64,000 bases of DNA from Eledone cirrhosa (Eukaryota): positions 1,488,001 through 1,552,000 of the forward strand of contig OZ024764.1 in NCBI GenBank assembly GCA_964016885.1, given 5' to 3'. Position numbers and translations under genes: made by a program. Each line of letters begins with the position of its first letter. Within the stretch, counting starts at the first letter, position 1. The notes beneath the pieces are model-generated. The model saw nothing but the letters and a program-made list of their open reading frames with translations, was not told the DNA's origin and made no database searches. Of the stretch, positions 469 through 60,037 are shown piece by piece.

Positions 469-1122
469 AAATATTGTTATACTTGGGGAGGGTCATATTT
501 GTGTAATATTGCCAGAATTAATAACAGAACACACTCACTAAGGGAAGTATAAATAAATAGATAAATAAATAAATAAATACATACACAAGCACAATAACAA
601 CAAACACATATAAACACACACTAGTAAAGATAGAATACATTAATCAATACACAGTCACCCAATCACGAACACACATCAAACAAAACACTATACACACACC
701 CAAACGCATGCGTAAAGAAGACAAAATAAAATAAAATAAACTAATAAATAAATATATAAACAGACTAAATAAAGATGGCGTAGAAAATACAATGCAACGG
801 GAGGAATCTATAGCACCACTGACGATGTTGCAGATGTGCAACGAAAGAACTTTGATAAACTATATATATATGTGTTTGTGTCTATATTGTATCTGTATTA
901 TTTTTGACCGTTGGTCAGTCAATGGCAACATTGAGGACCGAATAAATTAGATTACCGATATAAAAGACACAGAAGCGAAAAGCGAAAACCAACCAAGCAG
1001 TGAGTGTGTTCTGTTATTAATTCTGGCAATATTACACAAATATGACCCTCCCCAAGTATAACAATATTTGTTTCGACACACGATTTCATATAAAAAACCT
1101 CGCAAATCTAATTCATCGCCGT
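469..1122 (+). mobile_element. Penelope-like element remnant: pseudo-LTR, ORF-start tail and a short inverted copy
   Basis: 469-539 is the reverse complement of 999-1069. The tail encodes [28 protein letters not shown], homologous to [28 protein letters not shown] at 59912-59996. Contains an HHR; flanked by (TA)n. Confidence 0.85.
814..857 (+). ncRNA. Minimal type I hammerhead ribozyme
   Basis: CUGACGA-U-GUUGCA(GAUG)UGCAAC-GAAA-GAAC-UU. Stem II is a perfect 6 bp; stem I is only partly paired. Confidence 0.75.
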
Positions 1123-1149
1123 TATATATATATATTTATATACCCGACC

Positions 1150-1476
1150 TCCCATGGGTACAAGCTGAAGCATATAGACAATATGCCCCCACACCCTCCC
1201 ACAGCAAAGTGGCCGTGGAGGTGCCACGGCAAAAAAGCACCCAGCCCACACTGTAAAGTGGACGTGTAGGCCCCACGGAAAAAAGCACCCAGCACTCACT
1301 GTAAATGAGGTTGGTGTTAGGAAGGGCATCCAGCTGTAGAAATCAAGCCAAAATCAGTTCCTGTATGAGCAAGACATGGTCAGCCGACCAGACACTGCCT
1401 ACAACAGGACAACCCGTCTAACCCATGCTAGCATGGAAGAACGGACGTAAAACGGTGATGATGATGGTGATGATGA
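1150..1476 (+). mobile_element. SINE 3' portion with a tandemly repeated 48-49 nt module and (GAT)n tail
   Basis: Matches 9535-9836 and the 3' half of the SINE at 17867-18212. Confidence 0.8.
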
Positions 1477-2406
1477 TATAAATATATAAATATATATATA
1501 AATGTATAAATAAATATATATATATAAATATATAAATATATAAATATATATATAAATATATAAATATATATATAAATATATAAATAATATAAATATATAT
1601 ATATAAATATATAAATATATATATAAATATATAAATATATATATAAATATATAAATATATATATATATAAATATATATATATTATAAGACAGATTAAAGT
1701 ATTATTATTATAAATATATATATATATATCTCTCATTATCATACATATATATATATATATGTATATGATGGTGATATATATATATATATATGATGATAAT
1801 GATATATATATATATATATATACATACATGTACACATATGTTTCTATGATAATCAATATATTTGTTAATTGATTTTCTTCATGAAATATTAACTGTATAA
1901 TTACATGCACATTGTATTTTTGTATACATTTATATATATATATATATATATTTGTATATATATATATTTGTATATGTGTCTATATACATATATATATATA
2001 TATATATATGTATATATATGTATATACATATTTGTATATGTATATACATATTTGGATATGTATATATATTTGCATATATATATATATATATATATATATA
2101 TATATATATATATATATATTTGTATATGTGTATATATACATATATATATATTTGTATATGTGTATATATACATATATATATATATATATATATGTATATA
2201 TATGTATATACATATTTGTATATGTATATATATATTTGCGTATATATATATTTGTATGTATATATATATTTGTATATATATATATTTGTATGTATATATA
2301 TATATATATATATATATATATATATAGATATAATTGTATATATATATTTGTATGTATATATATTTGTATATATATATACATATATATATTTGTATATATA
2401 TATATA
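1477..2406. repeat. (TA)n-type microsatellite blocks
   Basis: Directly visible; source of the spurious Ile/Tyr ORFs. Confidence 0.95.
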
Positions 2407-2655
2407 GAGTGCTTTATATCAGTTATAAAAATGTTTAAGCTTGTTGAATCCCAACACATTAAATATAACCTCTGCATATATATATATTTGTATATTTATC
2501 ATCATCATCATCATCGTGTAATGTCCATCTTCCACGCTAGCATGGGTTAGACGGTTTTGTTCCATCTGATGCGGGAATGGTCAGGAGACGTGCCTCACTC
2601 GTATGGAAGTGTCTCCGGCAGGTTTTCTACGGCAGGATGCCCTTCCTAACACCAG

Positions 2656-57872: not shown

Positions 57873-57995
57873 TGAGGTAATGGTAGGTGGTCTGCCTCTT
57901 GCTGGTCTTGTAGGGCACAGGTTGCACAGGTTGCTAACCTTAGCAACCTGTGCCCTACAAGACCAGCAAGAGGCAGACCACCTACCATTACCTCA

Positions 57996-59429
57996 ATGGC
58001 CAAGAAAACCCACACAGATAGATGGAACGGGTGGACCAGAGCCATACGGACACCCGAAAACCACGATGAACTGAAGAAAATGATTGCACATGCGGTAGGG
58101 GCCAGCATAAAATTAACCCTTAAGGAACATATGTTCAAATTTAATGGTAAAACATATGCCCAAGAGGAAGGAGCAGCCATTGGTGTTAGCATTGCAGGCA
58201 ACATAGCTAACTTATTCATGGTATGGTGGGACAGTAGACTTAAACAAAAACTTAATGAACAATTAGAAGACAGCTTAACCCTGATAATGTACTCCCGCTA
58301 CGTAGATGATATAAACATCGTAGTTAAGACACCCCCACTAAAGAACAGTCAGGAACTAGAGAAAAACACAATGGAAAGCATCCAGCAAATAGCAAACTCC
58401 ATCCACCAGAGCATTAGAGTTACTATAGACTACCCAAGTAGACACCCCAACCATCGATTACCTGTACTAGACACAGAGCTCTGGTTAGATACAATTAACA
58501 ACCAAAAACAAATCCTCCATTCCCATTATGCCAAACCCATGACTTCCAAACATCTGATCCACCGAAACTCGGCCATTTCGGACCATACCAAAATCAACAT
58601 ACTGATTGCGGATTTGGTACGGGTGATGAGAAATGTGTCCCGCATGTGCAACCCCGAAGAACTAGAGAGACACATACAACACTTCATCCACCGTATGCAG
58701 TTCTCTGGCTACAATCAGAGAGATAGAATCAGAGTGTATAAAGGAGCCAGAACCAAATGGGAAAAAATGGTAAATAATGACATAAATGGGACCTGCCCCT
58801 TGTATAGGAGCAAATTTTGGAATAGAATAGAAAGAACTAAGAACAAGGCCAATAGAATAAACTCATGGTATGATAGCAATAAATACCAGAGTGTAATGTT
58901 CATCAATACAACCCCTAGAGGCGAACTAGCCTACAAATTTAGAAGGGCCCTAAAGAAACATAATCTCAATATTAAGATAGTAGAAAGACCTGGTACCTCC
59001 GTAAAAACACTTATTAGCAAGACATACCCGTTCCAAAGACCCTCATGTATAGATAAGAAATGTATAACCTGTAAAATAAGCCCCCATATTAACTGTAAAA
59101 CTAGAAATGTAGTATATAGCATAAGATGTACTGAAGGACAATGTAGAAACAAAAATATAGTGTACATAGGTGAGACAGCTCGTAGTATAGGGGAACGAAT
59201 AAATGAACACTGGCGAGACCTCCAAGATAATAAAGAATCATCTGTGCTCTACCAACATGCTAAGATAGAACACAGGGGTAAATTAGAGAGCATAGAAATA
59301 AAAATAGAATCCACACACAAGAAAGACGCAATGTTTAGGCAAATTACAGAGGCAGTAAGCATAAAAGAATTAAAACCAAAATTAAATAGAAAATATGAGT
59401 GGAACAGCAACATCACAACTTACAATTAA
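57996..59429 (+). CDS. Penelope-like RT (C-terminal half) + GIY-YIG endonuclease, N-terminally truncated; possibly Nematis clade
   Basis: Mirror copy differing at 2 residues. The clade is inferred from HYxKPM-SK, KxNILxADLxRxMRNxS and RMQFSGY. Confidence 0.9.
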   Translation: MAKKTHTDRWNGWTRAIRTPENHDELKKMIAHAVGASIKLTLKEHMFKFNGKTYAQEEGAAIGVSIAGNIANLFMVWWDSRLKQKLNEQLEDSLTLIMYSRYVDDINIVVKTPPLKNSQELEKNTMESIQQIANSIHQSIRVTIDYPSRHPNHRLPVLDTELWLDTINNQKQILHSHYAKPMTSKHLIHRNSAISDHTKINILIADLVRVMRNVSRMCNPEELERHIQHFIHRMQFSGYNQRDRIRVYKGARTKWEKMVNNDINGTCPLYRSKFWNRIERTKNKANRINSWYDSNKYQSVMFINTTPRGELAYKFRRALKKHNLNIKIVERPGTSVKTLISKTYPFQRPSCIDKKCITCKISPHINCKTRNVVYSIRCTEGQCRNKNIVYIGETARSIGERINEHWRDLQDNKESSVLYQHAKIEHRGKLESIEIKIESTHKKDAMFRQITEAVSIKELKPKLNRKYEWNSNITTYN

Positions 59430-59734
59430 GGACAAAATGAAAACACACACACACATAGAACAAACAACTTACAATTGAAAACACACACAAAATGAAAACA
59501 CACACAAGACAAAATGAAAACACACACACACATAGAACAAACAACCAACCAACAATAAATAAATAAATAAACAAACAAATAGAAAAATATAAATAGAAAA
59601 ATAGAAAAATGAACACAAACCCACACAGACACCCGGATGTGGCGCATGCGCAAACTGAGCACGCAACCCACACACAAACAAAATGGCGTAGGATAGAAGA
59701 AAGGAAAGGCACAGAAACGAAGAAAGAAATCCCC

Positions 59735-59779
59735 AGTCACTGAAGAGGTCACAGAGTGTGTGACGAAAGAACTATGACT
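59735..59779 (+). ncRNA. Minimal type I hammerhead ribozyme, right arm
   Basis: AGUCA-CUGAAGA-G-GUCACA(GAGUG)UGUGAC-GAAA-GAAC-UA/UGACU; stems I and II perfect; predicted cut after 59774. Confidence 0.9.
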
Positions 59780-60037
59780 ATATATATATAAACAACTATC
59801 TGGTTGTGGAACCAACCAACCAACCAGAAATTTATAAATTTGTAAATTTATAAATATATAATAAATTAAATTGAAGTGAAAGCAACTGGTGCGTGTGTTT
59901 CTTATTGGCAACATGACCCTCCCAAAGTATAACAATATCGGTTTCAACACACGATTTCAGATAAAGAATCTTGCTAAACAAATTCAGAAACGAAATATAT
60001 AATATATTATATATAATATATAATATATAATATATAA

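Follow-up and report, generated by a model that had tools for sequence, protein, structure and literature searches.

Inverted pseudo-LTR insertions that carry a tail are a known feature of Penelope-like elements (PLEs), with a published tail length of 30 to 40 nt (PMC8557442, Fig. 2 legend; PMC3846280). In such inverted insertions, including those of Pen2a of Adineta, the tail extension is present on one end only (PMC3846280, PMC8557442), and for Penelope of D. virilis a repeat of 34 to 37 bp is given in PMC2377424. PMC11167929 describes the PAc enzyme (Poseidon clade, Anolis carolinensis), which cleaves and extends both target strands in vitro. Reverse transcription (RT) begins there within a read-through RNA, and the two sites of initiation bound the tail, with no difference between strands; RNA-seq reads also end at these start sites. 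In the text covered, pairing of the ends went untested, and the steps after initiation were left unvalidated. Two PLE groups, Hydra and Naiad, have been reported from Octopus, and both are targeted to (TA)n. The passages covered of PMC2377424, PMC8969392, PMC3681739, PMC13282606, and bioRxiv 10.64898/2026.07.22.740005 hold nothing further on mechanism.

Insertion ends fall at two positions in the ORF start

We looked into the positions of the ORF-start motif in the window, by which we mean the whole 64-kb stretch of DNA analyzed. The motif occurs five times, distributed over three insertions termed A, B, and C: on the plus strand at 1042 and 59913, and on the minus strand with ends at 471, 30713, and 55930. 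As a first-pass annotation had claimed, the ends of three insertions from two families stop at one proximal site and join TA, and the opposite arms of A and C run further into the ORF start. The proximal termini (n = 3) lie between +21, the last G or C, and +26 from the ATG, the AATAT at this point being attributable to either element or flank, and the distal termini (n = 2) have their last G at +80 (1121 in A, 59992 in C). The tail is therefore 54 to 59 nt long. The end coordinates of the annotation take in a few ambiguous A/T bases. These observations establish the end positions and the anatomy of the three insertions (Table 1).

TABLE 1 Coordinates of the features of insertions A, B, and C in the window
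Feature	Position	Strand	Description
Insertion A, short inverted arm	469..539	-	71 nt, 100% identical to 999-1069; proximal end at 471-476
Insertion A, long arm	540..1122	+	~580 nt; 3' UTR/pseudo-LTR and ORF start, up to the distal site
Minimal hammerhead-like core in A	819..846	+	CUGANGA, helix II (folds), GAAA
Tail of A	1068..1121	+	ORF start, +27 to +80
Right flank of A	1123..1142	+	Exact reverse complement of left flank 448-467, 20 nt
Insertion B	30713..31995	-	Single arm, 5'-truncated, proximal end, 303-nt internal deletion
Minimal hammerhead-like core in B	30877..30905	-	Motif match
Stretch at 5' junction of B	31996..32046	.	51 nt of non-element DNA, then TA-rich DNA
Likely target-site duplication (TSD) of C, left copy	55901..55933	+	Up to 33 nt; last 4 nt common to the element end
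Insertion C, left arm	55930-57932	-	Proximal end; 2003-nt inverted arms; whole insertion, 55930-59996
Inversion centre of C	57915..57950	.	Short hairpin with 2-nt centre; 9-nt duplication on the left-arm (tail-less) side
5'-truncated ORF	57936..59429	+	497 aa; reverse transcriptase motifs 4-7, thumb, Cx4CxxC linker, GIY-YIG, CCHH-type residues
Minimal hammerhead-like core in C	59740..59768	+	Motif and fold; mirror copy at 56100-56128, minus strand
ORF-start re-entry in C	59913..59993	+	27 codons
Tail of C	59939-59992	+	Within the ORF-start re-entry
Likely TSD of C, right copy	59994..60026	+	Direct match to the left copy

TA-rich repeats adjoin all five ends; four of these repeats are TA-type arrays, and the fifth junction (1122-1142, in A) is a 21-nt TA run. 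Given that (TA)4+ runs make up 7.3% of the window, the chance of three independent TA targets is about 4e-4. Other AT runs lie within ~350 nt of the ends, five in C and eight in A, and none of them is used as a terminus. Of the idea that both priming sites are AT-rich, the half that concerns the proximal one (AATAT) is borne out; the native sequence past +80, which would bear on the distal one, is absent from the window. We found no conserved RNA stem-loop at either site, the folds being no stabler than those of shuffled sequences (z of 0.49 and -0.37), and no match to the exact end motif among the metagenome contigs searched. Over the ORF start, A and C are identical at 65 of 81 nt, with seven silent and seven replacement codon changes; the ORF sequences of B and C show 94% identity.

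The window also contains two Tc1/mariner-like transposase fragments, one at 15389-16159, with HTH_Tnp_Tc3_2 and related matches under the cut-off, and one at 22925-23371, with no Pfam match, as well as a tRNA-like match (17876-17933, 31.6 bits) that is probably a SINE head. It is otherwise full of short repeats similar to this match and of many minisatellites of 33 to 116 nt.

The element encodes a telomerase-related reverse transcriptase and a GIY-YIG endonuclease

We then analyzed the ORF of insertion C. Its match to RVT_1 has an E value of 4.7e-5, under the Pfam cut-off, and the model of P0004, a 49% identical homolog (pLDDT of 88.8), has telomerases as its top five Foldseek hits; compared with 7trd, this model gave a VIA Z of 15.4 and an rmsd of 3.8, with 364 residues aligned. 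The protein thus belongs with the telomerase-related reverse transcriptases. A GIY-YIG motif (VVY...YIGET...R...EH) stands at the C-terminus of the same ORF, and PF01541 is found in 21 to 47% of the members of its atlas neighbors; the Pfam search of the window ORF returned no match to the GIY-YIG domain itself. A sequence search of the PDB yielded two bacterial reverse transcriptases only, and the best of 177 homologs was a named Octopus vulgaris protein with 66% identity, which makes an octopus the likely host. When the N-terminal 330 aa of the homolog P0130 were predicted as a homodimer, the score was 0.00, a value that speaks neither for nor against a dimer.

The hammerhead-like core lies 167 to 223 nt upstream of the ATG. 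A minimal hammerhead of this kind (CUGANGA, helix II, GAAA) is described in PMC4209133. The loose pattern employed also matches nine other places in the window, and the Rfam search gave no hammerhead match at the gathering score.

Comparison of the translated sequences indicates that the terminal repeat re-enters the ORF start and that the terminal peptide is the ORF start of the element. The peptide has [FY][ND]TR in common with the N-termini of L002 (a permuted unit), P0129, and P0130, and the likeness between C and L002 reaches a shuffle p of 0.006, a single-comparison value from ~23 targets compared. Only 2 of 38 proteins of at least 980 aa have [FY][ND]TR in their first 40 aa, since many of them begin later or are more distant. 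Reverse transcriptase, GIY-YIG, ORF-start re-entry with inverted arrangement, and minimal hammerhead together identify an endonuclease-containing (EN+) PLE. We also noticed TGCGT shortly upstream of the ORF start, at ~59890 in the window and in several related loci (L001:2562, L005:1740, L009:3485, L011:3281, L012:2406, and L029:2078); found in relatives down to ~33% protein identity, this motif is a candidate cis signal.

Flanks and junctions of the three insertions

Over the 1991 nt compared beyond the centre, the two arms of C show 3 substitutions. Its flanks match each other directly over 33 nt, including one variant 7-mer unit, and in inverted orientation over 6 nt. We consider this match a likely TSD of 28 to 33 nt, with periodicity accounting for part of it, and since a variant unit is included, C is likely the product of one integration event.

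Both arms of A adjoin one 20-nt target sequence, mirror-imaged. A switch of array polarity such as that at A is rare in the rest of the window, where it occurs once among 22 adjacent pairs. Judging by this one case, the target of A may have been a palindrome that was cut close to the middle, or the flank may be a templated copy.

The two outward-facing ends that had been attributed to the insertions are present in A and C, two of the three; B has one arm. The element joins non-element DNA at 31995, so B contradicts the proposal that these insertions lack a 5' junction, except if a partner arm was lost later. B ends at the proximal site, lacks a partner arm, and is flanked on either side by TA-rich DNA, which implies that the proximal site can act alone. 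Its deletion, at 31356-31357, is in-frame and has taken away the linker together with the first part of the endonuclease. The 51 nt beside the 5' end of B was considered as a diverged tail and rejected (p of 0.23 to 0.87 against the two tails), and no second copy of this stretch was found in the window.

Related insertions

To this set we added 50 related loci, mostly 27 to 48% identical and mostly on short contigs. A TA run of at least 16 nt was present in two of them, L001 and L005, where it begins +20 to +22 past an ATG on arms of more than 1.7 kb. The proximal site is thus found again in two relatives with 41 to 43% protein identity, whose N-terminal likeness to the lineage was judged by eye against P0130.

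Inverted partners were sought from 17 start points, of which 15 insertions were scorable: L003 was set aside because its flank was shorter than 60 nt, and L028 together with L047 makes up one insertion. All other loci either have their start at the edge of a contig or form tandem units. A partner was present in 7 of the 15 (L011, L016, L028/31/47, L037, L040, L042/43/44, and L045) and absent from 8 (L013, L017/18/19/20/34, L021/24, L022, L023, L032/49, L035, and L036), which also speaks against a general lack of 5' junctions; no close relative has the 3' end of L013 or of L021/24, so that a short arm may have escaped notice in these two. L011 has a short inverted arm, a local junction duplication, and a long arm that extends at least ~45 nt into the ORF start. 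This arrangement mirrors that of A, and L029 and L036 diverge from each other within ~15 nt of the ATG; as the families concerned are 73 to 88% alike, the comparison is no more than suggestive.

The head-to-head arms of L028/L031/L047, L040, L042, and L045 begin at differing points of the ORF, and short microhomologies were seen by eye at the junctions of L011, L031, L042, and L045. A single-protein search gave no loci in the genome or viral contigs searched, and an alignment search gave none in viral contigs. One relative (L050, 34% identity) comes from a bacterial MAG, where its contig of 2.7 kb is likely host contamination.

How the inverted copies may form

The account that we hold to be somewhat better than an even bet is that of 5'-truncated PLE insertions in TA repeats, the 3' ends of which are fixed at ~+24 and +80 and likely reflect two internal RT starts, each cut strand of the target likely being primed at one of them in inverted copies. 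We infer every priming and joining step as follows. The GIY-YIG endonuclease would nick both strands of the TA array, and the two target 3'-OH ends would prime at the distal and the proximal sites, possibly on one RNA; the cDNA 3' ends would then anneal through microhomology and be filled in. A copy with only one arm, like B, would stem from one proximal priming and an ordinary 5' junction. In A and C alike, the 3' end of either flank leads directly into the antisense strand, which is the outcome expected of target priming. In favor of this two-start-site model, B has a single arm, L001 and L005 carry the proximal end on a long arm, the primer sequence of A is mirrored, and the in vitro results point the same way; against it count the two inverted copies in the window as the only ones scored, the lack of a conserved stem-loop at either site, and the origin of the in vitro data in the Poseidon clade, a different lineage. 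The first-pass proposal of two fixed internal start sites is supported, though two starts that bound the tail are already published (PMC11167929), as is the tail at one end of inverted insertions (PMC8557442, PMC3846280). Its proposal of one site per target strand fits both inverted copies and would agree with the cutting and extension of both strands in vitro, where neither strand prefers a site.

We give less credit, and only tentatively, to a fold-back, in which one distal-primed cDNA would snap back or switch onto itself via microhomology and copy the sense strand. Protein that still covers the tail would bring copying to a halt at the proximal site, and annealing of the ATAT end to the other TA end of the target would follow; all this we rate as doubtful, as we do the corollary that the tail-less arm is a DNA copy rather than a second priming event. 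The arms are near-identical, and in C their starting points lie no more than ~10 nt apart, at a short hairpin that has a 9-nt duplication toward the tail-less arm; palindromes at inverted junctions were interpreted as self-priming in PMC3846280. In both inverted copies, A and C, and probably in L011, the tailed arm moreover equals or exceeds the other in length. A tailed arm that is never shorter, together with slippage on the tail-less side (n = 3), is exactly what fold-back predicts and what twin priming merely allows, while microhomology at the inversion junction is expected under both. However, B has a proximal end without a partner, the proximal ends of L001 and L005 belong to long arms, in vitro work has mapped two RT starts (PMC11167929), and the tail is reported "at either end" (PMC8557442).

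That the endonuclease itself resolves the ends we regard as improbable. Here, the tail would first be present on both arms or in an intermediate, and the GIY-YIG domain would cut the element at the AT-rich proximal site and join it to the target. This was proposed in PMC8557442, the proximal site is indeed AT-rich, and PMC11167929 cites a requirement of the D. virilis endonuclease for the tail in cutting; yet the later in vitro mapping in that paper assigns both tail ends to RT starts, and neighboring AT runs are unused. Very unlikely, in our view, is an origin by chance, decay, or misassembly, with AT-rich spots recombining with TA arrays or the 2-kb palindrome being a fold-back read. Perfect palindromes are a known assembly risk, and n is small. 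Against this reading, the same positions recur in two families and two distant relatives, the arms of C differ at 3 sites, its flanks match directly rather than in inverted orientation, and the pattern agrees with published PLE anatomy.

Comparison with described elements

The insertions share with published PLEs the head-to-head arms, an ORF start inside the terminal repeat, an optional one-end extension (here on one end only in 2/2 inverted copies of the window), and a palindrome at the inverted junction. The one-sided asymmetry is the already published PLE tail, here in longer form, and since it was known, it changes little by itself. With 54 to 59 nt, the tail exceeds the published 30 to 40 nt, which means that the spacing of the two sites differs among lineages. 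The likely TSD of C, 28 to 33 nt, also contrasts with that of Adineta, 8 to 10 bp. The literature covered contains neither a test of whether proximal ends pair with distal ones nor a tail longer than 40 nt, nor does it contain a clade with a C-terminal endonuclease (EN) and an insertion in the fingers.

LINE-1 twin priming likewise involves priming by both target strands and microhomology at the inversion junction. LINE-1 inversions, however, split one copy, which is unduplicated, whereas here the same 3' sequence stands on both arms. With PAc, the element shares two end sites within the ORF start, AT-rich targets, and a hammerhead-like motif in the terminal repeat. The two systems differ in the position of a PAc start site (+111 to +118 versus ~+24 and +80 here) and in the hammerhead, which overlaps the start codon in PAc and has its core well upstream of the ATG here. 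Poseidon also has no Cx2-5CxxC linker, in contrast to the window element.

A short Cx2-5CxxC linker before a C-terminal EN was found in 98 of 142 sequences (the window ORF and 141 homologs, many of them fragments). The C-terminal GIY-YIG, the zinc-finger-like motif of the linker, the CCHH-type residues, and the microsatellite target are shared with Nematis and Neptune (PMC8557442), Nematis being the closest by eye in the short linker and the segment preceding it. Hydra and Naiad share the (TA)n target. Hydra is excluded by motif, as it lacks CCHH and has a CxCx5C linker, unlike the element here; Naiad/Chlamys is excluded as well, its endonuclease being N-terminal, whereas that of the window element is C-terminal; Naiad also has no canonical hammerhead.

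The spacing between RT3 and RT4 was measured on homologs, as the window copy begins inside the insertion. It amounts to 120 to 144 aa in all 111 measurable proteins among 281 homologs, a uniformity that is partly built in, since the homologs were chosen by similarity. Canonical PLEs have ~60 aa at this place (hand count from the text of Fig. S1 in PMC8557442), about half the spacing found here, and the element departs in this from Nematis, which has no insertion. The ~70 extra residues (P0001-P0281; 57936-58190 in the window) occupy the position of the telomerase insertion in fingers and are well modeled in P0004. Such an insertion would weaken the statement of PMC8557442 that, among EN+ PLEs, an insertion in the fingers occurs only in elements with an N-terminal EN.

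A stronger proposal, which we regard as rather unlikely, is that of an undescribed PLE clade, with a C-terminal EN, the ~70-aa insertion, and ORFs of ~1000 to 1170 aa. A single RNA would there be primed at two sites 55 nt apart, so that a proximal and a distal end are of necessity paired in every inverted insertion. If this were true, the second half of PLE integration could be tested directly, owing to the long tail and the young copies. Set against the described clades by motif and spacing, the element possibly represents a lineage outside them.
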